The notes below the pieces were generated by a model, which worked only from the letters and a program-made list of their open reading frames with translations, ran no database searches and had not been told where the DNA came from. DNA of 64,000 nt, from NCBI GenBank assembly GCA_020631855.1, contig JACKGU010000001.1, positions 295,601 through 359,600 on the forward strand, in the 5' to 3' direction. Position numbers and translations under genes: made by a program. This stretch comes from Candidatus Nomurabacteria bacterium (GTDB lineage Bacteria; Patescibacteriota; WWE3; UBA101185; UBA10185). Positions 22,579-61,834 of this stretch are shown here, piece by piece (position 1 is the stretch's first letter; each line of letters begins with the position of its first letter).

Positions 22579-24696
22579 CTATTTGGCTTGATTTTTGTAA
22601 ACATTGATCAAAAACTCTACATGTGCATCAAAACCCTCACCTAGTTGTTCAACACCATATAAAATCTCTTCACGATCAATTTTAGCCGCAAAAGCCCTAT
22701 CTTTAAATTTCTTCTTTACTGACGATACTTTCATGCCGTCGTAACCTTCGGGGCGCATCAATGCGTACGCATATAGAAATCCGGCCATCTCATCCACGGC
22801 AATAAGCGCAGAGGCCAGCCTGGTCTGAGGTTTTACATTGGTTCTCATGTGAGCATGAGCTGCAACTGCATGAATTAAACTCTCAGGATAGTTTCTCTCT
22901 TTAAACCATTCTAATGATTTTGCAGGATGCTCATCAGGGTATTCAAAATAATCAAGGTCATGTAATAAACCTGTGATATACCAGAGTTCGCGATCTTCAT
23001 TGAATTTTTCAGCATATGCTTCAAGACCGCGGGCGATCATAAGAGCATGCTGTATTTGATAGCTGTCCTTGACATGGTCCCGTAAAAGCGCCTCCGCCTC
23101 CTTTCTAGAAGGTAGAAATCCCTCGGAGCTAATGTATAAACTCTCGTTTAAATCAGTTTTACTTAGAGAGTCTTCTACTAGAGGATCGCTCTTGGATAAC
23201 CCGTAGATTTCAGCGTTTGCATCGTCGTAAACATGCTTCAATTGAGGAAATGGAACTCCTTCCCTTGCTGTAACATCCTCTAAAAACCAAAAAACTCTTT
23301 CTGAATGACCATAACCAAATGTCGGCGGCATGCCGTATTCAAGCATTTCAACATAATCAATATCGAGCCACTGCGCTTCCGAATCACCGGAATCTCTCAT
23401 TGACTGCTGTTCCGAAAATCGTTCAAACTGATCCAAGCCACTATTTATTTCCGACCAGCCATTTCCGAGTTCGGAGCCGGCAATAATTGGCTGGAAACGC
23501 TCTGTTATTCTGGTATCTTTTGGGTTCGCCTTTGCTAACGGCGACAAATACTTAGGGTGATTAATTAAAAAGGCAGGCCCCCCAATAGTTCTACGTATTT
23601 CTTTCCAAAGAGCGTCCACTAATCGTGGCCGATTCTCTGTCTCTGCCTTTATTCCGGCTTTTTCGCAAGCTAGCTTTAAATCTTCAATACTTGAATTGTG
23701 TACGTCTACTCCATATCTCTGCTTCATGATGTCAGAGAAATCAATCCTTTCCCACTCTTTTTTGGAGAAATCAACTTCAAAACCCCTAATACTGAACTTC
23801 TTCTTATCTCCGTAAAGAGATTCAATCACGTAATTAAAAAGGTCTTGAATAAAATCCATACCTGATTGCCAATCAGCGTAAGCCCAATAAACCTCCATCG
23901 CCATGTGTTCGGGAAGATGCTCGTCGGATAAACCCTCATTTCTGAATCTTGGGCCTATTTCATAAACTTTTTCATAGCCCCCTCCAATTAATCTTTTCAA
24001 AAAAAGTTCATGGGAAATTCTAAGATAAAGAGTCTCATCGATGGAGTCCATATGAGTCACAAAAGGATTCGCGTCTGCCCCTCCGGGCACTGCTTCTAAA
24101 ACAGGAATATTAATCTCATAGAAACCCCTTTTTTCAAAAAACTCGCGATGAGCAGCCCAAAACTTAGAACGTCTAATGTATCTATCACGAACATCATCAT
24201 TTATCCTTGTATCTAGATATCTTTTACGCATTCTGGTCTCTCTGTCTTTAAGCCCATCGTGCTTGTCGGGCAATGGTCTAAGGGATTTGGCCAATATTCT
24301 TATGCTGTGGGGCTCTATAGACTGCTCGCCGCTATTTGTTATTACTAAAGCTCCCTTGCACTCTATATAATCTCCAATATCTAATAAATCCAGCTCAGAG
24401 TAGGATATTTCACTATTTTTGTGTTCAACTTTTTCAAGATTTTGTTCCTTAATATATACCTGAATTGTGCCTGAAAAATCTTTTATATCAAAAAATGTCA
24501 GCTTTCCATGTCTTCTCAACGACATGATCCAACCGGCTAAAATTACTTCCTTTCCCCCAAGTTTGCCAAAGCTGCTTATAACTTCAGAGATTAGGTGGGT
24601 CCTAAAAGACGTTGCCGGATAAGGATCAACGCCTAGATCTTGAAGATTTTTAAGTTTTTGTAATCTTACATCCCTTAGCTCTTTTAAAGTGGCCAT
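22579..24696 (-). CDS. lysS: Lysyl-tRNA synthetase (class II) fused to a C-terminal HD-domain (YqeK-like) phosphohydrolase, about 705 aa from MATLKEL
   Basis: Core LysRS (FRNEGLSDEHLPEHMAMEVYWAYADW; ...PPTFGYGHSERVFWFL...VPFPQLKH) ends about residue 510; extra about 215 aa has H...HD...H..H..D pattern (IQHALMIARG...GLLHDLDY...AVAAHAH...AVDEMAGF). Confidence 0.9.
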   Translation of the reverse strand: MATLKELRDVRLQKLKNLQDLGVDPYPATSFRTHLISEVISSFGKLGGKEVILAGWIMSLRRHGKLTFFDIKDFSGTIQVYIKEQNLEKVEHKNSEISYSELDLLDIGDYIECKGALVITNSGEQSIEPHSIRILAKSLRPLPDKHDGLKDRETRMRKRYLDTRINDDVRDRYIRRSKFWAAHREFFEKRGFYEINIPVLEAVPGGADANPFVTHMDSIDETLYLRISHELFLKRLIGGGYEKVYEIGPRFRNEGLSDEHLPEHMAMEVYWAYADWQSGMDFIQDLFNYVIESLYGDKKKFSIRGFEVDFSKKEWERIDFSDIMKQRYGVDVHNSSIEDLKLACEKAGIKAETENRPRLVDALWKEIRRTIGGPAFLINHPKYLSPLAKANPKDTRITERFQPIIAGSELGNGWSEINSGLDQFERFSEQQSMRDSGDSEAQWLDIDYVEMLEYGMPPTFGYGHSERVFWFLEDVTAREGVPFPQLKHVYDDANAEIYGLSKSDPLVEDSLSKTDLNESLYISSEGFLPSRKEAEALLRDHVKDSYQIQHALMIARGLEAYAEKFNEDRELWYITGLLHDLDYFEYPDEHPAKSLEWFKERNYPESLIHAVAAHAHMRTNVKPQTRLASALIAVDEMAGFLYAYALMRPEGYDGMKVSSVKKKFKDRAFAAKIDREEILYGVEQLGEGFDAHVEFLINVYKNQAK

Positions 24697-24907
24697 TATT
24701 TTATTTCCTAAACTGAATACGTACTTCGCAATTATAACAGAAAAGGGGCAGGTACAAAGCACCCAAAAATAGTGCTAAAACATTTTTACGGCCTAAATTT
24801 TTTTATTTGCTTTTATATTGCTAACCCGAACAAAATTCTTTTAGTACATGGCCTAACCTGCTTATACTAGCCACAAACAACAAAGAACTGTAAAATATCT
24901 GCAGAGT

Positions 24908-25873
24908 ATGAAAAAAATAACTGAAGCTACGATCGCTCAAGGCACTAGGGTTTTTGTGAGTACAGATATAGATGTACCTATAGATAATGGGCATATTAGA
25001 AATACTTTTAGACTCGACCGTGGCTTAGAAACTCTTAAGTACATAGTAGATAAAGGAGCAATCCCAGTAATTGGGGGCCATATAAAAAATCCTCAAGGAA
25101 AATACGATCCCCAGCTTAGTACAGCACCTCTTAAAAAGTATTATAATGAAAAATTAGGGGAGGGTTCTTACGAACTATTAGAAAATCTGCGTTTTGACAT
25201 TAGAGAAGATCAGAATGAGGATACCTACGCACAGGAACTGGCAAATAAAACAGAGGTCTTTGTAAACGAGAATTTTGCAACCTCACATCGAACAAATGCT
25301 TCTTTAGTTGCTATTACTAAATACTTACCTTCATTCGCGGGACTTAATTTGAGCAGAGAAATCGAAGCTTTGGATAAAATACTTATCGACTACAAAAAGC
25401 CTTTTACTGCAGTTATTGGCGGAGCGAAAGTTGAAAGCAAGGCACCTGTTATTGATTCGCTTTGCAACATAGCTGACAATATCCTGCTTGGTGGGAAAAT
25501 AGGCTTAAACTATTCTACGGATAATGCTAGGGTGAGCTCTCCGGCCGACTACGCAGACGGTAATCAAGATATCGGCCCGAAAACAATCCTAAACTATACA
25601 GGATACATACTGTCAGCCCAAACACTTTTATGGGCCGGGCCTATGGGAGCTTATGAAAAAGACGAATTCTGTATTGGTACAAATCTAATCGCAGATGCGA
25701 TAGTGGAAGCAACAAAAGGCGGCGCTTATAGCATAATAGGAGGCGGAGATACGATTACAGCTTATAGCAAGAACCACGCATTGGGAGAAGTAAGTTTTGT
25801 TTCAACAGGAGGAGGGGCCATGCTGACATATCTGGCGCATAAGAATATGCCCGGCATTGAGGCTTTAGGATAA
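24908..25873 (+). CDS. pgk: Phosphoglycerate kinase (short, 321 aa)
   Basis: LENLRF, NENFATSHRTNASL, GGGAMLTYL motifs. Confidence 0.88.
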   Translation: MKKITEATIAQGTRVFVSTDIDVPIDNGHIRNTFRLDRGLETLKYIVDKGAIPVIGGHIKNPQGKYDPQLSTAPLKKYYNEKLGEGSYELLENLRFDIREDQNEDTYAQELANKTEVFVNENFATSHRTNASLVAITKYLPSFAGLNLSREIEALDKILIDYKKPFTAVIGGAKVESKAPVIDSLCNIADNILLGGKIGLNYSTDNARVSSPADYADGNQDIGPKTILNYTGYILSAQTLLWAGPMGAYEKDEFCIGTNLIADAIVEATKGGAYSIIGGGDTITAYSKNHALGEVSFVSTGGGAMLTYLAHKNMPGIEALG

Positions 25874-25876
25874 ATT

Positions 25877-26179
25877 ATGGCAAAAAGTTTAAAAGTTCAG
25901 TTTCCGGAACGTTGCATAGGCTGCGAACTGTGCATCATGGAAATACAAAGACAGCTTAAAAAACACGGCCTCGAAGGTTCTCTGATTAGAGTTTTTAAAA
26001 GTGCCAAAGAAGGAAAAGAAATATGCGAGACTCTGGAATACTCAATAGATCTAGACCCGAGCATAAATTCATACGACATTGAACAAATTAGGAAAATTTG
26101 CCCAAAAAGTGTTTTTGTTGTGGCCGACATGACAGAAGAAGAGAACTACGAAGACGCTCTGCTGGAACAGAAAGATTAA
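25877..26179 (+). CDS. Small ferredoxin-like protein (CxxCxxC ... CP)
   Basis: ERCIGCELC then distal ICPKS; 100 aa; tightly packed between pgk and AOR-like gene. Confidence 0.5.
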   Translation: MAKSLKVQFPERCIGCELCIMEIQRQLKKHGLEGSLIRVFKSAKEGKEICETLEYSIDLDPSINSYDIEQIRKICPKSVFVVADMTEEENYEDALLEQKD

Positions 26180-26181
26180 AT

Positions 26182-27015
26182 ATGCATAAATCAGTCTTAT
26201 TTGTTAATTTAAAAAATAAAACATACGAGGTTAAAAAATTTGACGAACTCGCAAAATACATAGGAGGAGTTGCTGTTGGATTTAAACTTCTTCTTGATAA
26301 TATAGAGCACGATCCAATTATATTTTCTATCGGACCTTTGAACGGCGTGTTTCCTTTCGCATCAAAAACTTCTATCGTTCTGCATAACAATGGCGTAGTC
26401 GAAGACTTATATATCGGGGGTTCCCTAAGCTCCAGAATGGCCTTTTCCGGGGTTGACTCCATAGTATTTATAGAATCCGCAGAAGAGCCCACATACGTTG
26501 AAATAACGAATGAGGAAGTGTTCTTTAAACCAATAACAACTGATATAGATTCTTTAGGATTACCGGGGAAAAGATCAGTTTTAAAACCAATTAAAAATAA
26601 ATACTTTTTAGATGATTATTTTTTAACTCCGGAGTTATTTTTTGAAGAAAAGCTTGCAAAGAAAAATGTAGGAGGAATAGTGTTAACAGGAACAAAAACA
26701 CGTGAAATAAAAAATCCTGAAAAATATAAGGAACTTTTACACGAAATATTAGGTAAAAAGTCTTTAATGGAAATAGATGAGGGAGATAGCCCCTCTTGCA
26801 CATTTTGTCCAATGGGGTGCTCAAAGTCTCGTACCGGAGAAATTGGAGGAAACATATTGGTACACAGCATGGTGGGATGCAAGCTTAGCCAAAAAATATA
26901 CAGCGACGTGGGAACAATTTTTTCTTGCTTGAGTGTGTTGGGCTATTCCTACACACACGAAGATATTGAAGACCTGCCTCTTCTGGTAAAAGAGGTACTG
27001 GAAAAATTAAATTAA
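26182..27015 (+). CDS. Aldehyde:ferredoxin oxidoreductase (AOR)-family protein, truncated: N-terminal domain + [4Fe-4S] CxxCxxxC motif only (about 277 aa)
   Basis: MHKSVLFVNLKNKTYEVKKFDELAKYIGGVAVGFKLLL...IFSIGPLNG...ASKTSIV...FSGVDSIVFIESAEEPTYVEI aligns with P. furiosus AOR N-domain; CTFCPMGC matches AOR cluster motif CxxCPxGC; ends at tpiA start. Confidence 0.65.
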   Translation: MHKSVLFVNLKNKTYEVKKFDELAKYIGGVAVGFKLLLDNIEHDPIIFSIGPLNGVFPFASKTSIVLHNNGVVEDLYIGGSLSSRMAFSGVDSIVFIESAEEPTYVEITNEEVFFKPITTDIDSLGLPGKRSVLKPIKNKYFLDDYFLTPELFFEEKLAKKNVGGIVLTGTKTREIKNPEKYKELLHEILGKKSLMEIDEGDSPSCTFCPMGCSKSRTGEIGGNILVHSMVGCKLSQKIYSDVGTIFSCLSVLGYSYTHEDIEDLPLLVKEVLEKLN

Positions 27016-27671
27016 TGAAATATTTAGTAGCAAACTGGAAATCTAATATGACAGTCTCCGAGGTTATTGTCTGGCTAAAAGCTTGGGATAAACTAATAAA
27101 AAGCGCAGAGAGTAATGATGCGGTAAGAGTTTTAGTAGCCCCTTGTTTTATACATCTTCCATTATTTACCGGTCTGGAAAATATTTATTCTTGCGGGCAG
27201 GATGTCTCGGAGAACAGCGTAGGGCCTTATACCGGATACGTGAATGCTACACAGCTAAGGGAATTCGCTGATTACAGCATAGTCGGGCACAGCGAAAGAA
27301 ATGAAGACTCTGAAACAGTTGTCAAAAAGATTAATCAGTGTAGAAATAACGGAATTGAGGCCATTGCTTGTTTCACTCACACTGAAAATGCAACAGAGTA
27401 TTCAAAATTCACAAAGATCTTAGCTTGGGAGGACCCTGAAAATATATCAAAACAAGGAAAGTATGCAGAATTAAGGTATGGTGAAATAAATCACTCTATT
27501 GAAAAAATTTACTCTAATATTGAACCCGATACTGTGTTATTATACGGAGGCTCTGTTAACTCGAATAATATTAGCGAATTAACTAGAATTAAGAGTATAT
27601 CGGGGTTTTTAGTAGGAAACGCAAGTCTGGACGTGGCTCACTTTTATAAGCTATACTGCTCCATGATCTAG
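27015..27671 (+). CDS. tpiA: Triosephosphate isomerase
   Basis: VANWKSN, IVGHSERN motifs; 218 aa. Confidence 0.9.
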   Translation: MKYLVANWKSNMTVSEVIVWLKAWDKLIKSAESNDAVRVLVAPCFIHLPLFTGLENIYSCGQDVSENSVGPYTGYVNATQLREFADYSIVGHSERNEDSETVVKKINQCRNNGIEAIACFTHTENATEYSKFTKILAWEDPENISKQGKYAELRYGEINHSIEKIYSNIEPDTVLLYGGSVNSNNISELTRIKSISGFLVGNASLDVAHFYKLYCSMI

Positions 27672-27750: not shown

Positions 27751-28815
27751 ATGAAATACATTGATGCGCATAAAAAAATAAATACAATTACTAAACCTGT
27801 AGCTAAAAAAAACTCAAAAGGAAGCTTCAAGGGTATTGCTACACTGGCACTTATACTTCTAATCTTCGTTGCCGTCGGGGGAACAGTTTTACTTTTTAAA
27901 AGCAAGCTGAACCCCGTTTCAATTGTTGCAAGCGCAACAAAGGCAAATATCAAAGAAACTGACGGGAGAACAAACATTCTAGTTCTCGGAAGCGACAAGA
28001 GAGATAACGGCAATGCTGTCACGTCAGTATTGACCGACACCATACTGCTAGTCTCAATAGGAAGGGTCGAGCACGACGTACTACTACTTTCCATGCCCAG
28101 AGATCTGTATGTTGAAAATTCAAAGGGATACAGTACAAAAATTAACGCTGTGTATACTTTAGAGGGGCCGGAGGAACTCCAGTCTGTAGTTGAAGACGTT
28201 CTTGGTGTTCCAATTCATTACTATGCCGTAGTTGACTTTAATTTGTTTGTAAATGCCATAAACGTACTTGGCGGCATTGATGTTAATGTTCAAAATGCGT
28301 TCACAGACTACCAGTATCCTATTGAGGGTAAGGAGAACGCGCCTATTGAGGAAAGATACGAAACAATATCTTTTGCGGCCGGAAAACAACACATGGACGG
28401 AGAGACAGCATTGAAATTCGCGAGATCAAGAAAAGGCGACAATAACGAAGGTACTGATTTCGCAAGAGCAGCAAGACAACAGTTGGTGATTGAGGCAATT
28501 AAGGAAAAGGCCCTATCCTTAAAAACAGTTACAAACGCTTCAAAGATTAAAGAGTTATACGACCTATACGCAGAAGGAATAGATACAAACCTGGGGTTTG
28601 CTGACGTCCAGGGCTTCTACCTATTGTCACAACAAATCAACTTTGACAGCATCAGATCTATTGTTCTCGACGACAGGAGCGAGGCAGATAAAGGTGGTCT
28701 ACTTTATGCTCCAATCGATACGGCCCTTTACGGCAATCAATATGTTCTCATTCCGCAGTCCGGAGACTATAGCCAAATACATGCATATGTTCAAAGATAT
28801 CTCTTTGGAGAATAA
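27751..28815 (+). CDS. LytR-CpsA-Psr (LCP) family cell-wall polymer transferase
   Basis: N-terminal TM; LVLGSDKRD...TDTILLVSI; GETALKFARSRKGDN...ARQQLVIEAIKEK typical LCP. Confidence 0.85.
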   Translation: MKYIDAHKKINTITKPVAKKNSKGSFKGIATLALILLIFVAVGGTVLLFKSKLNPVSIVASATKANIKETDGRTNILVLGSDKRDNGNAVTSVLTDTILLVSIGRVEHDVLLLSMPRDLYVENSKGYSTKINAVYTLEGPEELQSVVEDVLGVPIHYYAVVDFNLFVNAINVLGGIDVNVQNAFTDYQYPIEGKENAPIEERYETISFAAGKQHMDGETALKFARSRKGDNNEGTDFARAARQQLVIEAIKEKALSLKTVTNASKIKELYDLYAEGIDTNLGFADVQGFYLLSQQINFDSIRSIVLDDRSEADKGGLLYAPIDTALYGNQYVLIPQSGDYSQIHAYVQRYLFGE

Positions 28816-28817
28816 AA

Positions 28818-29456
28818 ATGATCGTTTTAGTTCACGGTAATAACTCTGTAAACAAAGCCGATGTAGTTTTTAAACTTAGTGAAAAAATCTCAACCCCAAG
28901 AAAATATCTTTCAATTGACGAGAATTCACCAACAGATGTTCTAACTGCAACAGCGACTAATAATATGTTTACCGGTGCACCAATTGTAATTCTGGATCTG
29001 GGTTCAAATACAAAAAGCGATGCAAAGAGTTTCCTAGATATTTTCCCGCGAGTACCTGCAAAAAGTTTGCTAATTTTATTGGCACAAAAAGAACTTCCTA
29101 AGTCAAATCAATTCCTTCAGCACGCACAGCAACAAGGCTATAAAATAATACTTAGCAACACTACTCCCACAGCAAACATTTTTTCTTTTGTCAGCTCCCT
29201 ATACTCAAAAAATAGAAAGAAAACATATAGAGAATACGAGACTTTAATAGCAGAAGGTGCTGATCCTTTTTACATTCTTTCTATGGTAATGTTCGGCGCG
29301 AGAAAGCAAGCAAAAGCTGTGAATGGGGATAAAATAGATGAAAAAACACTATCTTTATATAAATATATCTTCGAGACCGACCTAAAAACAAAAACCGGCA
29401 AAATTCCTGTTGACGTTGCTCTTCCTTTGATCATAGAAAAAGTGCTAACATCTTAG
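28818..29456 (+). CDS. Hypothetical; possible short DNA polymerase III delta subunit (HolA-like)
   Basis: MIVLVHGNNSVNKADVV ... MFTGAPIVILDL resembles HolA N-terminal pattern (YLLYGED...LF..rlvvv); weak. Confidence 0.3.
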   Translation: MIVLVHGNNSVNKADVVFKLSEKISTPRKYLSIDENSPTDVLTATATNNMFTGAPIVILDLGSNTKSDAKSFLDIFPRVPAKSLLILLAQKELPKSNQFLQHAQQQGYKIILSNTTPTANIFSFVSSLYSKNRKKTYREYETLIAEGADPFYILSMVMFGARKQAKAVNGDKIDEKTLSLYKYIFETDLKTKTGKIPVDVALPLIIEKVLTS

Positions 29457-29459
29457 TGC

Positions 29460-30215
29460 ATGGGAAAATTTAAAAAGAAGGTTTACCACAAAAAATATAC
29501 TAATGATCAGATCTATAACAACGTAAATCTGGGATTTACCTTAAAAAGCTCTGCGGTCCCACTTGTACTTACAGTTACGGCATGCGCCATATTTGCAACC
29601 CAAGTACTTTACCCGCTTATAAATTTTACGACCCAAGATCTTACGTCCGTCGCCGCTCAACACACAGCTTTAGCAAAAATATCAGGTTTTCGCGAGTTTC
29701 AATACTCAGAGTTACAAAGAAATGTACTAGGCTCAACAAATAATAGCGAACAGGTACAGGAGAAGTTTTATATTTCGATTCCAAAACTTAATATTGAAAA
29801 CGCTGAGGTAGAGACAAACTCTTCGAACCTAAATCCTGAAACCGCTCTTGGCCATTATCTGGGCTCAGCCTTACCGGGGCAAAATGGCACAGCGTTTGTG
29901 TACGGACACTCTGTGCTGCCTTTCTTTTACAACCCAAAAAACTATAAAACTATATTTTCAACCCTGGGAGATCTAGAAAAAGGAGATTTGATATATGTCA
30001 TATACGGCAATAGATCTTATACATACGAGGTAGAAGGGCAGAGAGAGCTTAAACCGGAAGAGGTTAATCCTATTGAGAACATAAAACCTGAATATCTACG
30101 AAAATCGTCCTTAGTTCTTATGACCTGCTCACCGCCGGGAACAAAGCTTAAAAGGCTACTTATAGACTCTGTTCTAATAAACACATCGATAATACAACAG
30201 AATTCAATAGAATAG
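29460..30215 (+). CDS. Sortase family transpeptidase
   Basis: N-terminal TM anchor; VYGHSV (His), LVLMTCSPPGT (TLxTC Cys motif). Confidence 0.78.
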   Translation: MGKFKKKVYHKKYTNDQIYNNVNLGFTLKSSAVPLVLTVTACAIFATQVLYPLINFTTQDLTSVAAQHTALAKISGFREFQYSELQRNVLGSTNNSEQVQEKFYISIPKLNIENAEVETNSSNLNPETALGHYLGSALPGQNGTAFVYGHSVLPFFYNPKNYKTIFSTLGDLEKGDLIYVIYGNRSYTYEVEGQRELKPEEVNPIENIKPEYLRKSSLVLMTCSPPGTKLKRLLIDSVLINTSIIQQNSIE

Positions 30216-34730: not shown

Positions 34731-36542
34731 GTGAACCATACAGCCAATATTAGAAATTTTAGTATTATTGCCCACATTGATCACGGCAAGTCTACCTTGG
34801 CGGATCGCTTGCTGGATATAACCGGCACTATAGAAAAAAGACAACTCAAAGATCAAACGTTAGACAGCATGGAGCTTGAAAGAGAAAAGGGTATAACAAT
34901 AAAGCTAAAGGCCGTTCGCATGAACTATACCCTCGATTCAATTGAATATCAGCTTAATCTCATTGATACGCCCGGACATGTGGACTTTTCCTATGAAGTT
35001 TCACGCTCTCTGGCTGCTTGTGAGGGCGCTGTTTTAGTTGTAGATGCTACACAAGGAATTCAGGCACAAACCGTTTCAAATGTTTATAAAGCTATAGATG
35101 CTAACCTAACAATCATTCCGGTCATAAATAAGGTAGATTTGGCAGGAAGTAATGTGGAAAAAACGGCCCAAGATTTAGTGGATACTTTTGGTTTTAAACA
35201 CGATGAAATTTTGCAAATCTCGGCAAAAACCGGCCTCGGGATTGAACGGCTACTTTCCGAAATTATTAAGAGAGTTCCTGCACCAAAAGATACCTATGAC
35301 AAGAATTTTCGAGGATTAATATTTGATACATATTACGATGAGTTCTTGGGCGTCATCGCGCTTATTAAGGTCGAGGACGGAAAAATTGAACTCCAGGATG
35401 TGAAAAACCATAGAAAAATATACTTAATGGCAACCAAAGCAGAGTCTGATCCTGAAAGTATAGGAATAATGGTTCCCCACCGCAAAGAAGTGGGATCTTT
35501 ATCTGCGGGGGAGGTTGGCTTCATCTCGACAGGCGTCAAAGATATAAAAACGGTCCGAGTAGGCGACACGGTTACTTTTAAAGATATCGCCTCCGCAACA
35601 CAGCAACTGGAGGGATACAAAGAAGTTAAACCCTTCGTATTCATGTCCATCTACCCAATTGAAAACGATAAATACCCTGAATTAAAAGACGCTTTAGAGA
35701 AGCTGTCTTTATCAGATTCTGCCCTTCAATACACCGCCGAAAGTAACTCCGCTCTAGGATTCGGATATCGTTGCGGTTTTTTAGGACTTCTTCACGCTGA
35801 CATAGTGCAGGAAAGGCTTGAAAGAGAATACAATCTGGAACTGATATCGACTACCCCTAGCGTAGAATATACCGCAACACTAACCACAGGGGAAACCGTA
35901 AAAGTGAAAAACCCATCAGAAATGCCCGAGCCCACTAGAATACAGAGTGTGCAAGAGCCGTGGATTATTTTACATATTTTTTCGCCGGCAACATACACAG
36001 GAGGGATAATTACCCTATGTGAAAGTCGGAGGGGCATTATGAGAAAAATGGAATACCCTACACAAGACACGATTATGTTTGAATACGAACTGCCTCTATC
36101 TGAACTTGTAAATAATTTTTTCGATGAACTCAAAACAATATCTTCCGGATATGCATCAATTGATTACGACTTTCTGGAATACAGAAATGTAAAAGTAATA
36201 AAAATGGACATTCTGGTACACGGAGCTGAGGTTGAGCCTTTGGCACAAATAGTTCTAAAAGATAACGCCCAAGCAATCGGCAAAAAAATAATAAACAGAC
36301 TAAAAGATGTAATACCACGACAACAGTTTGCAGTCGCTGTTCAAGCCGCCATAGGCGGAAAAATCATAGCTCGCGAGACCATACCGGCCATGAGAAAAGA
36401 TGTTCTATCGGGCATATATGGAGGCCACAGAGAAAGAAAAGATAAGTTATTAGAAAGACAAAAAAAAGGTAAAAAAAGAATGAAGAGACTAGGAAAAGTT
36501 GATATTCCGCAAGAAGCCTTTAGACAAGTTCTAAGTAATTGA
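34731..36542 (+). CDS. lepA: Elongation factor 4 (LepA), GTG start
   Basis: IRNFSIIAHIDHGKSTLADRLL; DTPGHVDF; LepA C-terminal domain. Confidence 0.95.
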   Translation: MNHTANIRNFSIIAHIDHGKSTLADRLLDITGTIEKRQLKDQTLDSMELEREKGITIKLKAVRMNYTLDSIEYQLNLIDTPGHVDFSYEVSRSLAACEGAVLVVDATQGIQAQTVSNVYKAIDANLTIIPVINKVDLAGSNVEKTAQDLVDTFGFKHDEILQISAKTGLGIERLLSEIIKRVPAPKDTYDKNFRGLIFDTYYDEFLGVIALIKVEDGKIELQDVKNHRKIYLMATKAESDPESIGIMVPHRKEVGSLSAGEVGFISTGVKDIKTVRVGDTVTFKDIASATQQLEGYKEVKPFVFMSIYPIENDKYPELKDALEKLSLSDSALQYTAESNSALGFGYRCGFLGLLHADIVQERLEREYNLELISTTPSVEYTATLTTGETVKVKNPSEMPEPTRIQSVQEPWIILHIFSPATYTGGIITLCESRRGIMRKMEYPTQDTIMFEYELPLSELVNNFFDELKTISSGYASIDYDFLEYRNVKVIKMDILVHGAEVEPLAQIVLKDNAQAIGKKIINRLKDVIPRQQFAVAVQAAIGGKIIARETIPAMRKDVLSGIYGGHRERKDKLLERQKKGKKRMKRLGKVDIPQEAFRQVLSN

Positions 36543-37445
36543 CGAGATATAGGACTTCAATTTTTTCAGCTTAATTACATCTTCTAGCCTTCTGGTGCCG
36601 GCCTTTATCTCCATATAATATTCAAAAATATTAGTCACATCGTTGAGAAACTTCTTTGTTGAAACAACATACCCGGCTATTAGAACGAGCTCGGAGATTT
36701 GTTTAGTACCCATAAATACATCGCGCACAACAAGTAGCAAAATACTAAGTTTAAAAAAAGACACTAATGATTGAAGGCTGAACCAGGAAATAAAACGAAA
36801 AGACTGAACATCACCATACTTACCCCAAACTTTCTCAGCATAACTTTTTACGCGATCATTAACCAAAAGCCGTGAGTAATATTTCTCTCTAACCTGATCG
36901 AATTTTTCGTATAAAACCTCATAGTGTCTTGAAAGAAAATAAGAAGAGATAATATAGAAAGATATCGCAGAAACCTCTAAATAAAAGACTCGTACATCAA
37001 TCAACAATAAGATGAAAGGGATTAAAATAAACTCAACAATTCCCTGAAAACCATCGTCAATCATATGAGTTACAAACCGTCTAATGGCATGAGTTAAATT
37101 ACGAACTGCCTGCACTACCTCCATACGGTCTTTTTCTTTCGGAGAAAACGTTATTAAAAAGTCTGTTTGAACTTCAACAAGCTTTTTTTCTGTCGTAAAA
37201 GAAATCAAAGATTTTGATCCGACACGAACAAGGTGCTCAATAATTTCTGTAACTAGAATAAGGGCAAGGGGCAAAACGATTTCGCTAAGGGACATTCTTT
37301 GCTCTATACGATAAATGCCTAATGAAAATAGAAAAGTTACTAAAAGAGGCCCTAAGGTGCAAATAAGACGCAACAAAATATACAGGTTATACTCTCGCGT
37401 GAAAAAAAATTTAATTAAGTAGTTTCTTATAAGACGGGCAGTCAT
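36531..37445 (-). CDS. Polytopic membrane protein resembling an ABC-exporter transmembrane domain without ATPase domain
   Basis: About 6 hydrophobic helices; ends where an NBD would begin; 12-nt convergent overlap with lepA. Confidence 0.3.
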   Translation of the reverse strand: MTARLIRNYLIKFFFTREYNLYILLRLICTLGPLLVTFLFSLGIYRIEQRMSLSEIVLPLALILVTEIIEHLVRVGSKSLISFTTEKKLVEVQTDFLITFSPKEKDRMEVVQAVRNLTHAIRRFVTHMIDDGFQGIVEFILIPFILLLIDVRVFYLEVSAISFYIISSYFLSRHYEVLYEKFDQVREKYYSRLLVNDRVKSYAEKVWGKYGDVQSFRFISWFSLQSLVSFFKLSILLLVVRDVFMGTKQISELVLIAGYVVSTKKFLNDVTNIFEYYMEIKAGTRRLEDVIKLKKLKSYISSIT

Positions 37446-41797: not shown

Positions 41798-42469
41798 ATG
41801 ACAACTATTTATCTAGTTAGACACGGAGAAAACCTAGCAAACATTACCAGAGAACTTTCTTATAAACACATAGACTATGAGCTGACGAACAAAGGACATT
41901 TTCAAGCAGCTCAAACTGCTACAGCCTTTGATAATATAACCATAGATGCAATCTACTCTTCTCCTCTTAAAAGAGCGATGCAAACGGCAGAATATATAGC
42001 TAAAAGAAAGAAACTAATACCAAAAATTTTAGAAAACTTCAGAGAAATAAATATGGGAAAGGTCGAAGGGATGAAGCCAAATGAAGAAAGTTGGAAACAA
42101 TATTTTTTAATCACACATAAATGGTATATGGGCGAAGAAGACATAAGCTTTCCTGAAGGAGAAAACTACTCTCAGCTAGTTAACCGCTTTGCAACGGGCC
42201 TACTAGAAGCAATCAAAAAAACTCTGCACGGTAATATTGCAGTTATTGGGCATGCAGGCATCTTTGCAGCCGGAGTGATCCATCTTTGTAAAATAGAAAA
42301 TAAAAAAGAGTTTTCTGCTATACAAAACCATAACTGCTCAATAAGCGAGCTGTCGGTCACACAAAACAATCAAAACCTATCTTACTCCTTAGTCAAGTGG
42401 GCCGACAGCTCGCACTTAACGGGCAGCGCCGCGAAACTAGTTAAAGGCATGCCCGAATCGTCATCCTGA
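41798..42469 (+). CDS. Histidine phosphatase (phosphoglycerate mutase-like) family protein
   Basis: IYLVRHGEN (RHG motif), later GH. Confidence 0.7.
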   Translation: MTTIYLVRHGENLANITRELSYKHIDYELTNKGHFQAAQTATAFDNITIDAIYSSPLKRAMQTAEYIAKRKKLIPKILENFREINMGKVEGMKPNEESWKQYFLITHKWYMGEEDISFPEGENYSQLVNRFATGLLEAIKKTLHGNIAVIGHAGIFAAGVIHLCKIENKKEFSAIQNHNCSISELSVTQNNQNLSYSLVKWADSSHLTGSAAKLVKGMPESSS

Positions 42470-55475: not shown

Positions 55476-56285
55476 ATGGACCTTAATGCTGCTCAAAACA
55501 CCAATAATCAACAGCTAAACTCGCACCCAGACGATGCTCAGAAAAATAAGCTCAATACGATTTTACCGGGCACCAATTCTCAAAGCTTGGGAGGGAATTC
55601 TCCGATTACAAGCATTGCAGGGGTGTCGGACGACGATCTTCAAAACAAAAGCATAAATCTAGACACGCAAGATACCCTAAGTACAGAAAATAAGACCAAC
55701 ACAAACAAAGAAATAGAAAAAGCAAAAGGCTACAAAGATGACATAAGTAAAATTGTATATGACTTTCTAGAAAAAAACGGAGAGAGCCTAGACAGTATGG
55801 AAGAGGTTCCATCAGACATAGGACCCTCAATAAATAACCATCCCGCAACACTTGGCCCCGGAAAAGGAAGAAGGGAGATTTTTACAAGCCCTGTAATAGG
55901 AACTATTAGTGAAAATGCGCCTATAAGCCATCGCGAAACCTTCCAAACTGAAATAGACCCGGCTTCTCAAACAGAGCAGATTTCTGTAGCTAAGGCAGAA
56001 ACATCCGCTCAAGAAGAAAAAAATTCTTCGGAAATTCAAAGTATACAGGAAGTATTACAAAACCCACAACCAGATTCCGAGAATTACGATAAAATATCAA
56101 CATTGATTCCAGAAACCGAACCTATACCGCAGCCGGATAGTGATTTGAACGTTGTTGACCTGAGAACAGGCCATGAAAATTTGCAACAAATTGCCGATCC
56201 AATAGATAAATTAACTGAAGAAGCAGATGAGAAAGAGGCAGACTTTATAACAAAAGTGGAGGATACACATGCTGTCGCTAACTGA
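55476..56285 (+). CDS. Acidic, Q/N/S/T-rich low-complexity (intrinsically disordered) protein
   Basis: 269 aa, no TM, no motif; 17-nt overlap with downstream ATPase gene. Confidence 0.4.
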   Translation: MDLNAAQNTNNQQLNSHPDDAQKNKLNTILPGTNSQSLGGNSPITSIAGVSDDDLQNKSINLDTQDTLSTENKTNTNKEIEKAKGYKDDISKIVYDFLEKNGESLDSMEEVPSDIGPSINNHPATLGPGKGRREIFTSPVIGTISENAPISHRETFQTEIDPASQTEQISVAKAETSAQEEKNSSEIQSIQEVLQNPQPDSENYDKISTLIPETEPIPQPDSDLNVVDLRTGHENLQQIADPIDKLTEEADEKEADFITKVEDTHAVAN

Positions 56286-58677
56286 TATAGCCTACAACAT
56301 CTTCTGGATACTCTTTTACATTATTTTCTTGGCGAGCACTATATTAGGAATATTTTATATGCTTGCCAAAACCAAAAGACAAAGATTTCTAAAAAACAAA
56401 CAATATAATTTGACCTTCTTCCATGTTAAAGTACCACAACAAAACGAATTCGAAATAGATGCGGCAGAACAACTTTTTGCAGGCGTGGCAGGTTTGAGAA
56501 GATCAACTCTGGAAGGACTTTTGAAAGGCCAATACCAAGTCTCATTTGAGATCTTGGCCAAACACGGGCAAATAGGCTTCTATATAGTAATGCCTGACGA
56601 ATTGGTGGAATTTATGGAAAAGCAGATTAACGGGGCCTATCCTACTGCCGAAATAGACATTATTGATCCAAACGAAGTTTGGGACAGAGGGCACTTCACA
56701 GCTATCGCAGAGCTAAAACTTAAAGGACCGGCATTCTACCCTATTAGAACGATAAAAGAGAAAGAAGGTGACCCGCTAAGCACTCTCACCTCGGTACTAA
56801 CAAAGCTGAAAAAAGACGAGGTTATAGCTATTCAGCTTGTAACCTCACCTGCCAGTAACTGGTGGAGGGCTGCAGGAAATGCTTTTATCGGACATGTCAA
56901 ACACGGCGGAAATCCCGAAAAGAAAAGTGCCCCAGACAACTCCATGCTGGAAGGTGTTGAGAAAAAAATAGGAAAAAGCGGGCTTGATGTCGTTGTGAGA
57001 GTTGTCTCAATAGCTGAAACCAAACACATAGCGGAAAGCCACATAATGAACGTTGTAACCGCCTTCGAGCAGTATACTGATGTTAAATACAATAAATTCA
57101 AAAAAAGCAGAGTTTTATTTAAAACAAAATTTGTAAATGATTTCATTTACAGAAACATAACGCCTCTAAATATATACATCCCGATTTTATATAACACACT
57201 TTATAGCAGAACCTCGGTACTGAATATTACTGAGATGGCAAACATCTTCCACATGCCTAACAAAAACATACAAACTCCAAACATTCTGTGGCTAATTGCA
57301 AGAAAGGCGTCAGCCCCGTCAAACATACCTCACGAAGGCCTGTATTTAGGAATCAATCAGTTTAGAGGCTCACAGAGAGGTATCTATATGAAAGAGAAAG
57401 ATCGTACACGACATATGTATATTATAGGGCAAACGGGCACAGGTAAATCCGAGTTTATGAAGACACTGGTACTACAAGATATTGCCGCGGGAAAAGGTTT
57501 GGCTCTAATTGATCCTCACGGAAGCGATATAGACGATATCTTAGAAAAAATCCCGGAAAGCAGAATAGACGACGTAATACTTTTTGATGTTTCAGATATA
57601 GAACGCCCGATGGGATTAAACATGCTTGAAGCTGAAACCGAGGAAGAGAAACACATGATTATTAACTCATTTATTGCCTTGTTATATAAGCTATACGACC
57701 CAAACAGACAAGGTATCATGGGCCCTCAACTTGAAAGGGCTATAAGAAACGTTATGCTAACCGCAATGGTAGATAAAGAATCAACCATGGTAGATGTTCT
57801 AAGGCTATTGATCGACAACAAATATGTAGAAACTTTTATACCAAGAATTCAAGATCCACTAGTTAAACGGTACTGGACTGATGAAATGGCCAACACAAGC
57901 GACTACCATAAAGGCGAGAAAATGGGCTATTTTGTATCAAAATTTGATAGGTTCGTAACAGAGAGGACCATGAGAAATATACTAGGGCAACCAAAAAGTG
58001 CATTTAATTTTAACAAGATTATGGCAGAAAAAAAGATACTGCTCGTAGACCTGTCTAAAGGTAAGATTGGAGAAGAGAATTCAAACTTTATCGGCCTGCT
58101 TCTGGTTCCACGAATACTTGCTGCAGCTCTATCCAGAGCTTCCCTTTTAGGTAAAGAGGATTTCCCTGATTTTTATCTTTATGTAGATGAGTTTCAAAAC
58201 TTTGCCACACCTGACTTTGCTACTATACTGTCGGAAGCCAGAAAATATAAACTAAATTTGGTTGTCGCGCACCAATTTGTGGCACAGTTAACCGACGACA
58301 TTAAAGAAGCCGTGTTTGGTAACGTAGGAACAACTTGTGTTTACAGGGTTGGTCCGGACGATGCCGAATATCTTGAAAAACAGTTTGACCCTTATTTCAC
58401 AAAGTCAGATTTATTAAACTTGCCAATTGGAAACGCTTACATGAGGCTGCTTGTCGACGGCCACCCAACAACGCCTTTTTCCCTTGCTGTAGATTGGGAC
58501 ATGGTTAATAAAACTAAAAAAGATCCTTCTGTGGCAAAGAGAATAAGAGAAAACTCAAGCATGAAATACGGAACACCAGTAAATGAGGTTGAGGAATACA
58601 TAAATAAAAGGGCAGGGCTGAATAAACAAGGCGAGGATAGCCAACTACTTGAAAAAAGAAGTTTAATACCTTTTTAA
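56269..58677 (+). CDS. Membrane-anchored FtsK/HerA-superfamily ATPase with VirD4/TraG/TraD-like (type IV coupling protein) C-terminal signature
   Basis: N-terminal TM hairpin; about 340-aa insert domain; Walker A IIGQTGTGKS; Walker B LYVDEFQNF; ARKYKLNLVVAHQFVAQL...VGTTCVYRVGPDDAEYLEKQF resembles TraG-D_C consensus (Rs.gi.l.l..Qs..QL ... eTaeylS). Confidence 0.6.
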   Translation: MLSLTDIAYNIFWILFYIIFLASTILGIFYMLAKTKRQRFLKNKQYNLTFFHVKVPQQNEFEIDAAEQLFAGVAGLRRSTLEGLLKGQYQVSFEILAKHGQIGFYIVMPDELVEFMEKQINGAYPTAEIDIIDPNEVWDRGHFTAIAELKLKGPAFYPIRTIKEKEGDPLSTLTSVLTKLKKDEVIAIQLVTSPASNWWRAAGNAFIGHVKHGGNPEKKSAPDNSMLEGVEKKIGKSGLDVVVRVVSIAETKHIAESHIMNVVTAFEQYTDVKYNKFKKSRVLFKTKFVNDFIYRNITPLNIYIPILYNTLYSRTSVLNITEMANIFHMPNKNIQTPNILWLIARKASAPSNIPHEGLYLGINQFRGSQRGIYMKEKDRTRHMYIIGQTGTGKSEFMKTLVLQDIAAGKGLALIDPHGSDIDDILEKIPESRIDDVILFDVSDIERPMGLNMLEAETEEEKHMIINSFIALLYKLYDPNRQGIMGPQLERAIRNVMLTAMVDKESTMVDVLRLLIDNKYVETFIPRIQDPLVKRYWTDEMANTSDYHKGEKMGYFVSKFDRFVTERTMRNILGQPKSAFNFNKIMAEKKILLVDLSKGKIGEENSNFIGLLLVPRILAAALSRASLLGKEDFPDFYLYVDEFQNFATPDFATILSEARKYKLNLVVAHQFVAQLTDDIKEAVFGNVGTTCVYRVGPDDAEYLEKQFDPYFTKSDLLNLPIGNAYMRLLVDGHPTTPFSLAVDWDMVNKTKKDPSVAKRIRENSSMKYGTPVNEVEEYINKRAGLNKQGEDSQLLEKRSLIPF

Positions 58678-58687
58678 GAAAGACGCT

Positions 58688-60565
58688 ATGGTAGAAACAG
58701 CAACCGCCGCAAATGACGCTTTAACAGCATTAAAGGGAAGGAGCGAAACAAAAGTTTCGCCTCTTGAAGAATTTTGGACAAATATAAATGCGCTTACTGC
58801 GGCTTCGCGACAACTGCTGACTAAAATAGAAACCAGCCCCCAGAGCGGACTGAATCAACGCAGAGCCGCACAGCTAGCTAGACAGGCTTTGGCTAGCTAT
58901 GAGATGACGACTAGCCTGACAGAAAATCCCACTAATAGAGAGGAAATTAATGCCCTTTCCAGGTTAGGCGCTGCGACAAACATCGACCCAACAAATCTAT
59001 ACAGAGAGACAATATTACTACAGCCGGAAGTACACTCGTATGAATATTCGGTCAAGCTGTTATTCTCCCACATAGTGTCTATGACCACTGAGGACAGAAG
59101 CAACACCACAAAAAACTTAGCATTGGTTTTAGCCGGGAATTGCTTAGACGGGAGTAAGGTTGATGTAAGAAAAATTCAAAACGAGCTCAGAGAATTAAAT
59201 TTTCCGAACCACCACTTATCAGAAGCAGCAGAGGCCATCGCTGCTATAATCCGGCATACGCCTTACAATCTAACAGATCATCAAGAAAAATTGGGGGTAA
59301 CAGGATACCCGGAAGTCTTGGCTAAAGCTTATAAGAGACTCTACGATCTAGCAACCAAACTTGATCCGGATACACCGCCTACAAAAGCGGAAGAAAGGTC
59401 ACAGCACCAACCCTATGCCAATTGGGAAGCCAGGGCCAAAGAAAGAGAATCGATACACTACAACAGTAATCCTAGAGAACACAAAATATTTTCACGTAAA
59501 GGAGAGATTTTGACTGCCAAGGGTTCGGAGAATAAAACAGCCCAAGTCTTAATTCCAACTGCCATACTTACCAGAACCGTACCTTTGGCGGACTTTGCAG
59601 GCAATGACAGGGCTTTCAATAAAGGATACGTAAAACTACAGCAGGTATTTACCTGCACAACATTTCAAGAAGTCGAAGCTACCCTTGAAATGCTAAACGC
59701 AGCATCTATTGCAGAAGAAGAAAAAACAGCACAGGTACCCATATATGTTCCTAAAACCGTGGTTCAAAATGGAAAAACAACAATTGAATATGAGATAACC
59801 TACATGGAGATGCCGATTGGAACCTATAATAGCTGGCGTAAAGCTTTAATGGAGGCTCGCAAATCCTACCTTAGAGCAGGATTTTCTATTCAAAACCAAG
59901 ATATAACTGCTGGAGTACGCTTAGCAACAGAGCAAGAGAATGCCTATGCAGAACAGACAATGTTGAATAGATATCAAGAGCTTTTGTCTGGACCTAGCCA
60001 TATCAAAGATTCTCTAGACGCATGGATGAGTCAAAGTCATTCAAGGGACAGATTTTACATTAAAGAATTGATGCAAAATACAATGGAACTAGTAAATGAG
60101 TTGACTGAAGAGCTTAATTTGACCCGAAACCCTCGCAATATAACATTAGAGGCTATGAAAACTCTTTATGAAGAAGGGCATGAGCAGCACCCACTGACGA
60201 TGGAAAAAGAAATAACACAGATGTTCGACAACAGAATGGCCGAGCGCTCTAACTATTATGTTGCAATGAAGGTAGCTTTGACAACTCTTGAAAATGTAAA
60301 TGCTTTACCGCCGCCAAGAGATCGCAAAGAAGCAAAAGAACAGATTAGAATGATTATAAATGTTCAAACACAAATAAAACAAATAATGCTTTTCTTGGCA
60401 CTTCAAGAAAAGGGCGTCTCCGAGAGCCGTGCCTCACAAGTCGCGCTGGAAAACTTCCCGGAACACTCAGTGATTAAAGCTCAAGTACCTTATAGGGCTA
60501 GAAATAGTCAAGCCAGAAGGGTTGCAGGAAAGAGACAAGCTGTTAGCAACCAAGGCTCTAGTTGA
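58688..60565 (+). CDS. Large (625 aa) soluble hypothetical protein adjacent to coupling-protein-like ATPase
   Basis: Long ORF, no TM, no recognisable motif. Confidence 0.5.
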   Translation: MVETATAANDALTALKGRSETKVSPLEEFWTNINALTAASRQLLTKIETSPQSGLNQRRAAQLARQALASYEMTTSLTENPTNREEINALSRLGAATNIDPTNLYRETILLQPEVHSYEYSVKLLFSHIVSMTTEDRSNTTKNLALVLAGNCLDGSKVDVRKIQNELRELNFPNHHLSEAAEAIAAIIRHTPYNLTDHQEKLGVTGYPEVLAKAYKRLYDLATKLDPDTPPTKAEERSQHQPYANWEARAKERESIHYNSNPREHKIFSRKGEILTAKGSENKTAQVLIPTAILTRTVPLADFAGNDRAFNKGYVKLQQVFTCTTFQEVEATLEMLNAASIAEEEKTAQVPIYVPKTVVQNGKTTIEYEITYMEMPIGTYNSWRKALMEARKSYLRAGFSIQNQDITAGVRLATEQENAYAEQTMLNRYQELLSGPSHIKDSLDAWMSQSHSRDRFYIKELMQNTMELVNELTEELNLTRNPRNITLEAMKTLYEEGHEQHPLTMEKEITQMFDNRMAERSNYYVAMKVALTTLENVNALPPPRDRKEAKEQIRMIINVQTQIKQIMLFLALQEKGVSESRASQVALENFPEHSVIKAQVPYRARNSQARRVAGKRQAVSNQGSS

Positions 60566-60628: not shown

Positions 60629-61834
60629 ATGTTTAAACTGCCATTTAAAATAAATTTCAATAAAAAATCAAAAACGGATACTTTTTTAACAATAGACATA
60701 GGATCAAGCACAGTCAAAACACTAGCTTTTTATAATGACAGCGAAAGCAGATTAAAAGTAATCGGGCTGGGGAAGGAATTTTTACCCGAGGGTGCGGTAC
60801 GAGCCGGATATATAACTGATTTAAAAAGTGTCATAGAAGCAGTGGACGAAACAATTTATCAGGCCCTTGCTAATACGGAACACAGAATTACAGATGCGAT
60901 AATAGGAATATCCGAAAACCTGTGCTATTCGCAAGTTACAACCGGCCGGCTAAACAGAACTACGCCGGGAGAACTGGTTACAGAGAAAGAGCTGGATAAT
61001 TTGAAATACAAAATAATTGATGCTGCGTACAACACGGCCCTAGATGATTTTGTCTATAAAACCGGCGATCTTTCAACAGAGCTTATTCATATAAGCTCTA
61101 TTCCGGCCCATACAAAACTTGATTCAAAGATTGTTGACGACCCAACCGACTTGCCGGGAGCAAAAGTTGAGCTGGCAATTTACAATGCCTATTCCCCCGA
61201 ATATCATACAAAGCAACTGCAAAAAATTGCTGACACGCTAAAACTTTCAGTTTTAGCTATGGTTCCCAACATGTTCTCGTTAGGGGAAGCCCTAAAAAAA
61301 CTCACAAAGGACAATGAGTTGGATTGTATCATTTTAGATATCGGGGGAGAAACAACAGATGTAGGAATTATGTTTGGAGGGGGCCTTATAACTACAAAAA
61401 GCTTACCTATAGGAGGAAGGCACTATACAGAACAGCTATCTTTACAGAGCGGCCTTACTTGGGCAGAATCTGAAAAAAAGAAGAATCAGTACTATTTCGG
61501 ACAAACAGCAGATACAGAAACATCTTTCATCGAAACAGTAATGACTGAAACAACCGACCTGTGGCTCAGCGGGCTGGAAACCCTGTTTAATGAATTTAAT
61601 GGGGTCAGGACCTTTGCATCTGATATATTTGTAGTTGGGGGAGGAAGCTTGCTACCCGATATAATGGCAGCTCTAGAGTCCAGGCCATGGACAAAATCCA
61701 TACCTTTTAGAGAGCCGCCAAGAATAAAACGGGTCAGCATTTCTGAGCTGGATTTTGCTAGAGATACAACCGGCAAACTAAATGAATTGGATTATATTCA
61801 AGCCCTGTCTTTAGGTTTGATGGGAGAATATTAA
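60629..61834 (+). CDS. FtsA/PilM-family actin-like ATPase
   Basis: FLTIDIGSSTVKTLAF...LKVIGLG...GYITDLKSVIEAV phosphate-1 region; ILDIGGETTDVGIM phosphate-2; 401 aa. Confidence 0.7.
   Translation: MFKLPFKINFNKKSKTDTFLTIDIGSSTVKTLAFYNDSESRLKVIGLGKEFLPEGAVRAGYITDLKSVIEAVDETIYQALANTEHRITDAIIGISENLCYSQVTTGRLNRTTPGELVTEKELDNLKYKIIDAAYNTALDDFVYKTGDLSTELIHISSIPAHTKLDSKIVDDPTDLPGAKVELAIYNAYSPEYHTKQLQKIADTLKLSVLAMVPNMFSLGEALKKLTKDNELDCIILDIGGETTDVGIMFGGGLITTKSLPIGGRHYTEQLSLQSGLTWAESEKKKNQYYFGQTADTETSFIETVMTETTDLWLSGLETLFNEFNGVRTFASDIFVVGGGSLLPDIMAALESRPWTKSIPFREPPRIKRVSISELDFARDTTGKLNELDYIQALSLGLMGEY

Follow-up and report, generated by a model that had tools for sequence, protein, structure and literature searches.

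The 64-kb window analyzed here (64,000 nucleotides of contig JACKGU010000001.1, positions 295,601 to 359,600, from a bacterium of the WWE3 lineage of Patescibacteria) contains two small genes between those for phosphoglycerate kinase (PGK; pgk) and triosephosphate isomerase (TIM; tpiA, or tpi). One, fdx, encodes a ferredoxin-like protein of 100 amino acids (aa), and the other a 277-aa protein related to aldehyde:ferredoxin oxidoreductase (AOR), referred to here as mini-AOR. We favor, with moderate confidence, the view that the pair is a reduced two-subunit AOR that has become fixed in WWE3 (Katanobacteria) and most likely functions as a redox module with two [4Fe-4S] clusters. A first-pass annotation, made from the sequence of the window alone, had reported that pgk and tpiA are split by two tightly packed genes, and both the open reading frames (ORFs) and their coordinates are borne out (Table 1). 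Its description of 3-nucleotide (nt) gaps and an ATGA junction needs correction: the sequence has 3 nt between pgk and fdx, 2 nt between fdx and the mini-AOR gene, and a TAATG junction in which the mini-AOR stop codon TAA shares 1 nt with the ATG of tpiA. The pair is probably co-translated with pgk and tpiA.

The first ~200 aa of the 277-aa protein had been aligned with the N-terminal domain of tungsten AORs. A Pfam search supports this for residues 4–118, which match AFOR_N (PF02730) with an E-value of 6.6e-20 and a score of 72 bits (cutoff 29.8); the remainder of domain 1, up to residue ~190, is supported by a structure model instead. AFOR_C (PF01314), the second model proposed for the search, does not match the 277-aa protein even at E ≤ 1, and there is no other Pfam match. 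An AlphaFold2 (AF2) model built from 39 family members has a pTM of 0.79 and a pLDDT mostly of 80–97 over residues 1–190. When this model is compared to the PDB with Foldseek, chains of the AOR family alone are recovered (E = 3e-13 to 2e-10, TM ~0.63), namely 1aor, 9mqx, 9g7j, 4z3w, 6x1o, 1b25, and 8c0z, which include AOR, FOR, WOR5, BamB, and AorB; nothing outside this family falls below E = 5e-3. Superposition on 1aor_A, 9mqx_D, and 9g7j_A covers ~240 columns, and in an alignment counted by hand K62 of mini-AOR corresponds to R76 of Pyrococcus furiosus AOR and G79-G80 to G95-G96. The AFOR_N match and the family-exclusive fold matches together uphold the assignment of the N-terminal domain.

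Following domain 1, the sequence CTFCPMGC, already recognized as the AOR [4Fe-4S] motif, aligns to C288-x2-C291-x3-C295 of P. furiosus AOR. The accompanying statement that the protein stops ~50 aa after this motif without pterin-binding domains is correct as to the absence of those domains, but the protein is not truncated at its C-terminus; it is shortened internally, with four Cys kept. The last ~55 residues align (MAFFT) to the far C-terminal block of full-length AORs, SLxxCxFARKIY...LGxxxTxEEL, where the mini-AOR consensus reads HSxVxC..KIYSD..FSCL.VLGY.YTHEDIE and HSxVxC falls on the SLxxC block. A profile of the C-terminal 82 residues matches ~20 full-length relatives in two pieces, the CxxCPxGC motif and the later Cys block, which lie 170–200 residues apart in those proteins (i-Evalues down to 2e-7). 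Through one such comparison (P0182 against 1AOR), the later Cys block is identified with D489-S-A-G-L-C494 of P. furiosus AOR, which is followed by LGWDFTTED at 513–521. Because of this alignment, we equate C233 with C494, the fourth cluster ligand. The last 64 aa thus do not look like a random tail; they appear to be homologous to the domain-3 segment with the fourth cluster Cys. In the 85 reduced AORs compared, C206, C209, C213, C233, and H259 are kept in all, and C249 in 82.

Alignment to full-length relatives opens gaps of ~50 and ~190 columns, and the C-terminus is gone; the mini-AOR corresponds to an AOR from which four parts are missing, namely a small part of domain 1, ~50 residues from the beginning of domain 2, ~190 residues with the pterin-binding core, and the last ~60 residues. 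The pterin-binding DxxGL[CD] (DxxGLD) block of domain 2 lies inside the deleted region. In the same alignment the FxRxGLGxxxGxKxLK block of full-length relatives has no counterpart in mini-AOR, and the pterin- and Mg-binding blocks are thus missing, the GR/GxG block around R182-A183 among them. P. furiosus AOR (1AOR) and FOR (1B25) have in common with mini-AOR the fold of domain 1 (Foldseek E = 3e-13 and 1e-11, respectively), the CxxCxxxC motif, the distal fourth Cys, and the LG(W/Y)D(F/Y)T(T/H)ED helix. Relative to these enzymes mini-AOR lacks ~330 residues, comprising most of domains 2 and 3, the C-terminal ~60 aa, and short stretches of domain 1 and of the beginning of domain 2; in addition to the missing AFOR_C match, the position of D489 in P. 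furiosus AOR is occupied by His in most members. Judged from these alignments, mini-AOR appears to be an AOR with internal deletions that has kept domain 1 and all four cluster Cys.

The partner of mini-AOR is, as first described, a 100-aa ferredoxin-like protein of the CxxCxxC...CP type, in which C13, C16, C19, and C75 are kept in 82/82 orthologs and P76 in 81/82. Pfam Fer4 scores 16 bits on this protein, against a cutoff of 21.1 (E = 0.011), and a profile of the family finds nothing significant in the PDB, where the WOR5 Fe-S subunit appears at E = 0.8–0.9 (residues 9–40 against 7–39). The protein does align, at 22–32% identity, to 78–100-aa ORFs upstream of AOR-like genes of 538–554 aa and to polyferredoxins. 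With the 153–164-aa polyferredoxins encoded upstream of canonical 590–604-aa AORs, it shares 22–25% identity, an N-terminal CxxCxxC, and a CP. These comparisons suggest that the small subunit shrank from a polyferredoxin to a protein of ~90 aa with a single CxxCxxC...CP site.

All 83 of the mini-AOR loci compared encode fdx and then mini-AOR, with tpi-lytR-holA-sortase next wherever the contig reaches. Directly upstream is (gap)-pgk in most of them, gap taking the place of pgk in about a dozen, and the order gap-fdx-mini-tpi is retained in the most divergent loci (30–33% identity). The placement of an AOR-like pair in the pgk/tpi cluster is therefore no peculiarity of the window but is conserved across the WWE3 lineage.

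The nearest full-length relatives are proteins of 538–554 aa containing both AFOR_N and AFOR_C (P0172, P0174, P0175, P0177, P0180, P0188, and P0193), which match the mini-AOR family profile at E-values of 1e-33 to 1e-18. In these sister lineages the gene occupies the same site, with pgk and/or a small fdx upstream and lytR-holA-sortase downstream: the order is pgk-fdx79-AOR538-lytR in L084, pgk-AOR548-lytR-holA-sortase in L094 and L095, and gap...fdx-AOR550-lytR-holA-sortase in L085 and L087. They differ from the mini-AOR loci in that AFOR_C is kept and tpi does not follow. Canonical relatives of 590–604 aa (L088, L090) have a polyferredoxin gene directly upstream. Because syntenic full-length AORs are usually accompanied by a small fdx gene, and canonical relatives by an upstream polyferredoxin, we interpret the fdx/mini-AOR pair as a reduced two-subunit AOR. 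The pair of fdx and AOR beside pgk is, on this gene order, probably ancestral, with a placement that predates the reduction; the WWE3 form would be a reduced descendant of that two-subunit AOR, and the adjacency of tpi would be specific to the reduced lineage. Since the site is without tpi in lineages with 538–554-aa AORs, tpi may have arrived there at about the time when the AOR was reduced.

The same gene order is found in the two-subunit AORs WOR5 (6X1O chains A and B) and AorAB of Aromatoleum aromaticum (8C0Z), where the Fe-S gene directly precedes the AOR gene. The Fe-S subunit of these enzymes has four cluster motifs, compared to one in the fdx product, and homology between them in the PDB comparison is non-significant; their catalytic subunit has the pterin domains that mini-AOR lacks.

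Other relatives are reduced in different ways. Three of the 550-aa AOR-like proteins (P0174, P0177, and P0180) have lost CxxCxxxC and the fourth Cys while keeping AFOR_C and a gene for a small CxxCxxC...CP partner; those at L085 6001–7653 and L087 6001–7653 (P0174 and P0177) illustrate a route of reduction opposite to that of the WWE3 mini-AOR. Forms of 215–217 aa (P0197, at L091 5001–5648, and P0202) consist of about half of domain 1 and the Cys module, and at L091 the order is pgk-fdx79-micro (215 aa), with tpi not next. Forms of 220–260 aa (P0187, P0191) are without CxxCxxxC and retain the C-terminal helix FACL..L.Y.Y.HE[DE]LE. In P0176 (283 aa), the middle of a mini-AOR is joined to non-AOR sequence, which is probably due to a chimeric contig or a miscalled gene and not to a real fusion.

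A word-indexed protein search returned 312 homologs from WWE3/Patescibacteria assemblies, nearly all 276–290 aa long and 49–61% identical over their full length, some of them named "AOR N-terminal domain-containing protein." When the family profile was searched exhaustively, the matches at E ≤ 1e-30 fell into 46 clusters (50% identity), whose full-length members measure ~280–300 aa. With genomes sampled at one per species, 91 contain a relative; all are WWE3-like, and the closed genome CP006914.1 is one of them. Family members are 30–61% identical to one another; the median identity to the proteins of the window is 51% for mini-AOR, 48% for pgk, and 39% for tpi. Ratios of nonsynonymous to synonymous substitution rates (dN/dS), calculated by NG86 across 54 genome pairs, are 0.064 for mini-AOR, 0.065 for fdx, 0.067 for pgk, 0.063 for lytR, and 0.111 for tpi; with dS close to saturation, these values are more informative relative to one another than in absolute terms. 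The pair is under strong purifying selection and is as constrained as PGK.

These data bear on the possibility, raised in the first-pass annotation, that a frameshift or a missing segment had shortened an ordinary AOR. The sole point in favor of a sequencing or assembly artefact, or of a decaying pseudogene of a full-length AOR, is the short length of the protein relative to AORs of ~600 aa. Against it, more than 300 proteins encoded in independent assemblies, the closed genome among them, share the length (~280 aa) and architecture, identity within the family is 30–61%, the Cys are invariant, dN/dS is close to that of pgk, and the frame is intact, with coupled start and stop codons; we therefore regard this explanation as virtually out of the question.

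The position of the pair in a glycolytic cluster had also suggested a relic of a GAPOR-type module. Archaeal GAPOR is an AOR-family enzyme that replaces GAPDH and PGK in glycolysis, and it resembles the system described here in being glycolysis-linked and ferredoxin-coupled. It differs in its length of ~650 aa, in the presence of pterin domains, and in having no specific sequence affinity to mini-AOR; moreover, mini-AOR relatives carry in the same cluster the genes for both enzymes that GAPOR replaces. The generic AOR model NF007354 is matched by 39/39 members tested, whereas the archaeal GAPOR model (GAPOR_Arch, the NCBIfam equivalog NF040818) is touched by four of the 39, at E ≥ 0.023 and against a cutoff of 1300 bits. 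On this model the mini-AOR of the window gives no match at E ≤ 1, and full-length syntenic relatives score ~30 bits, so that a specific affinity to GAPOR was rejected. Among solved structures, those nearest to P0174 (550 aa, syntenic) are FOR and AOR. In the window pgk adjoins the pair and no gap gene was found within the 64 kb; in most relatives gap and pgk are both in the same cluster. Finally, a search of the rest of the genome had been proposed for the missing C-terminal domains. Central segments of five full-length relatives, used as tblastn queries, retrieved no AFOR_C-like segment from the window or from the 83 mini-AOR loci; a split AOR with its pterin domains nearby was rejected on this basis. 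Given the model matches, the nearest structures, the presence of GAPDH and PGK, and the lack of an AFOR_C-like segment in the window and the mini-AOR loci, the data speak for a relic of a generic two-subunit AOR and give no support to a GAPOR relic. The term "relic" can thus stand for a larger ferredoxin-coupled AOR, as represented by the syntenic 538–554-aa genes, but not for a GAPOR-type module.

The same evidence makes it very unlikely that the pair is a functional GAPOR-like or other aldehyde oxidizer, acting either as a split AOR, with its pterin-binding partner encoded at another locus, or by new cofactor-free chemistry at the cluster. Its glycolytic setting would be in keeping with such an activity, as would the full-length syntenic relatives that adjoin pgk and the retention of basic and acidic residues of domain 1 that face the pterin in AOR, such as K62 at the position of R76. 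To these must be opposed the uniform affinity to the generic AOR model, the closeness of the syntenic full-length forms to FOR and AOR, the GAPDH and PGK genes alongside, the tblastn result, and the four Cys ligands, which leave no open iron site evident. To our knowledge, Patescibacteria generally lack cofactor biosynthesis, which also counts against this explanation.

In the reading favored here, internal deletions in the large subunit have removed those portions of domains 2 and 3 which clamp the tungsto- or molybdo-bis-pyranopterin and have left domain 1 with C206, C209, C213, and C233. Each of the two proteins would then bind one [4Fe-4S] cluster, and the pair would be unable to oxidize aldehydes at a pterin site. 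Most likely the two form a heterodimer with two [4Fe-4S] clusters that serves in electron transfer or as a redox module and represents what is left of the electron wire in the ancestral enzyme. Candidate redox partners are the ferredoxin-dependent enzymes of WWE3 fermentation (PFOR, hydrogenase) or a triose-phosphate enzyme. The idea of a novel mini-AOR redox partner, which had been offered as an alternative to a GAPOR relic, is thus the best fit in the form of an AOR derivative paired with a one-cluster ferredoxin-like protein, although the redox role itself is predicted from sequence. In a WWE3 genome that carries the pgk/fdx/mini-AOR/tpi cluster (L013), the electron carriers were described as including "a ferredoxin oxidoreductase-like protein," and PFOR, an ADP-forming acetyl-CoA synthetase, and a type 3b hydrogenase were found in the same genome (Kantor et al. 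2013, PMC3812714). This gene inventory makes a ferredoxin-level role in fermentation plausible.

Several observations weigh against the favored reading of the pair. The AF2 model of the ferredoxin-like protein is of low confidence (pLDDT 57) and has a beta-alpha-beta-beta-alpha-beta topology; Foldseek with this model gave generic, non-significant matches (PII, CutA) that are uninformative. In the AF2 model of mini-AOR, the Cys-loop residues 196–241 have a pLDDT <50. A profile of the C-terminal 82-aa module found no AOR match in a direct search of the PDB, and the equivalence of C233 and C494 is transitive, resting on intermediate relatives. The cluster Cys are lost in P0174, P0177, P0180, P0187, and P0191, yet these proteins persist, so the conserved function there may reside in domain 1. 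Electron transfer also leaves unexplained the strong retention of the ~190-aa domain 1 and the persistent linkage to gap or pgk (and to tpi in the ~277-aa form) through rearrangements.

An accessory or scaffold role would better explain this linkage and the conservation of domain 1. The pair might be a redox- or oxygen-sensing accessory that binds PGK, TIM, or GAPDH and modulates or stabilizes them, its clusters being sensors and not a wire; we consider this possible but unlikely. The pair always adjoins gap or pgk, with tight translational coupling, even where the upstream gene has changed from pgk to gap, and tpi follows in the ~277-aa form. The full-length and 215-aa forms likewise adjoin pgk, the PGK (~320 aa) and TIM (~218 aa) of WWE3 are unusually short, and domain 1 is conserved even in relatives minus the cluster Cys. 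However, no fusions to pgk or tpi genes were seen, and an interaction with the enzymes is hypothetical. Because lytR, holA, and a sortase gene are part of the block too, adjacency may be inherited synteny in a compact genome, and the 550-aa relatives are without tpi at the site. A more elaborate form of this idea is that the pair is a dedicated Fe-S accessory of WWE3 triose-phosphate glycolysis that might form a complex with the short PGK, TIM, or GAPDH, coupling or gating carbon flux by the redox state of ferredoxin, with domain 1 re-used as a docking or ligand-binding platform; we consider this rather more doubtful.

If this more elaborate form is correct, the series of 600-, 550-, 280-, and 215-aa forms would record the passage from a cofactor-dependent enzyme to a non-catalytic Fe-S protein after the supply of cofactor was lost. 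More generally, the graded series of ~600, 550, 280, and 215 aa allows one to test what becomes of an enzyme that depends on a cofactor in organisms presumably unable to make that cofactor. For tungsten and molybdenum enzymology, mini-AOR would be a natural pterin-less AOR in which only domain 1 and the [4Fe-4S] site are left. In Patescibacteria, the pair represents two strongly conserved putative Fe-S proteins in the core glycolytic operon of a lineage with very few electron carriers, and the two are good candidates to supply the connection at ferredoxin level that is missing between sugar fermentation, PFOR, and hydrogenase. A literature search on AOR with CPR (Candidate Phyla Radiation), WWE3, or Patescibacteria found no description of the mini-AOR family, and within the library searched no paper connects AOR-family proteins to WWE3 or CPR. 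Database names for its members are generic or misleading; some are called "aldehyde:ferredoxin oxidoreductase" (JGI), a label that would lead to aldehyde oxidation being included by mistake in metabolic reconstructions.

The features of the locus are listed in Table 1. On the opposite strand, upstream of pgk, are lysS and serS. A weakly supported promoter-like site lies at 24868–24896, 5' of pgk; in the promoter and terminator scan the number of sites was no higher than in shuffled sequence.

Table 1. Features of the pgk/fdx/mini-AOR/tpiA locus and of the mini-AOR, in coordinates of the window
Feature	Position	Strand	Description
pgk, phosphoglycerate kinase	24908-25873	+	321 aa; PF00162, E = 7e-77; first gene of the co-oriented block
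fdx, ferredoxin-like ORF	25877-26179	+	100 aa; C13-x2-C16-x2-C19 ... C75-P76
mini-AOR, AOR-like ORF	26182-27015	+	277 aa; PF02730, E = 6.6e-20
AOR domain 1 (AFOR_N), slightly shortened	26182-26751	+	residues 1-190; AF2 model and fold match
CTFCPMGC, putative first three [4Fe-4S] ligands	26797-26820	+	C206-x2-C209-x3-C213; aligns to PCYACPIGC of 1aor (C288/C291/C295)
Domain-3-derived segment (by alignment)	26851-27012	+	residues 224-277; carries C233, C249, and the YTHEDIE helix
C233, probable counterpart of the fourth cluster ligand	26878-26880 (codon)	+	alignment via full-length relatives
tpiA, triosephosphate isomerase	27015-27671	+	218 aa; PF00121, E = 4e-37
lytR	27751-28815	+	downstream syntenic block; context, outside the module
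holA	28818-29456	+	downstream syntenic block; context, outside the module
Sortase gene	29460-30215	+	downstream syntenic block; context, outside the module

The two glycolytic enzymes of the locus are themselves reduced in length. The 321-aa PGK aligns in three pieces to the 398-aa PGK of Thermotoga maritima (1vpe) and has no counterpart of ~70 residues of the nucleotide-binding C-domain (1vpe ~222–292) or of ~12 residues around 86–96. In the loci of relatives that were inspected, WWE3 PGK orthologs are 319–325 aa long, compared to 344–404 aa in lineages with 548-aa AORs. The TIM, short at 218 aa, matches several TIM models, including the subfamily model PRK04302; some Katanobacteria TIMs have been found to group with archaeal sequences (Jaffe et al. 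2020, PMC7304191).

Elsewhere in the window, the lysyl-tRNA synthetase ORF (22579–24762, minus strand; 727 aa) has a C-terminal extension of ~200 aa with an HD-domain signature, and the lysS ortholog in L003 has a weak PF01966 HD match after tRNA-synt_2. A gene 15 kb from the pgk/tpi cluster (41798–42469) encodes a 223-aa protein of the histidine-phosphatase superfamily (His_Phos_1, E = 9e-41), which may be a cofactor-dependent phosphoglycerate mutase. Four ORFs encoding 269–625 aa (36531–37445 on the minus strand, 55476–56285, 58688–60565, and 61835–63364) have no Pfam match at E ≤ 1e-5. Near them are genes for a HerA/DUF87-like ATPase (56269–58677) and a PilM/FtsA-like protein (60629–61834), and because of these neighbors the four ORFs are possibly part of a pilus or secretion cluster.

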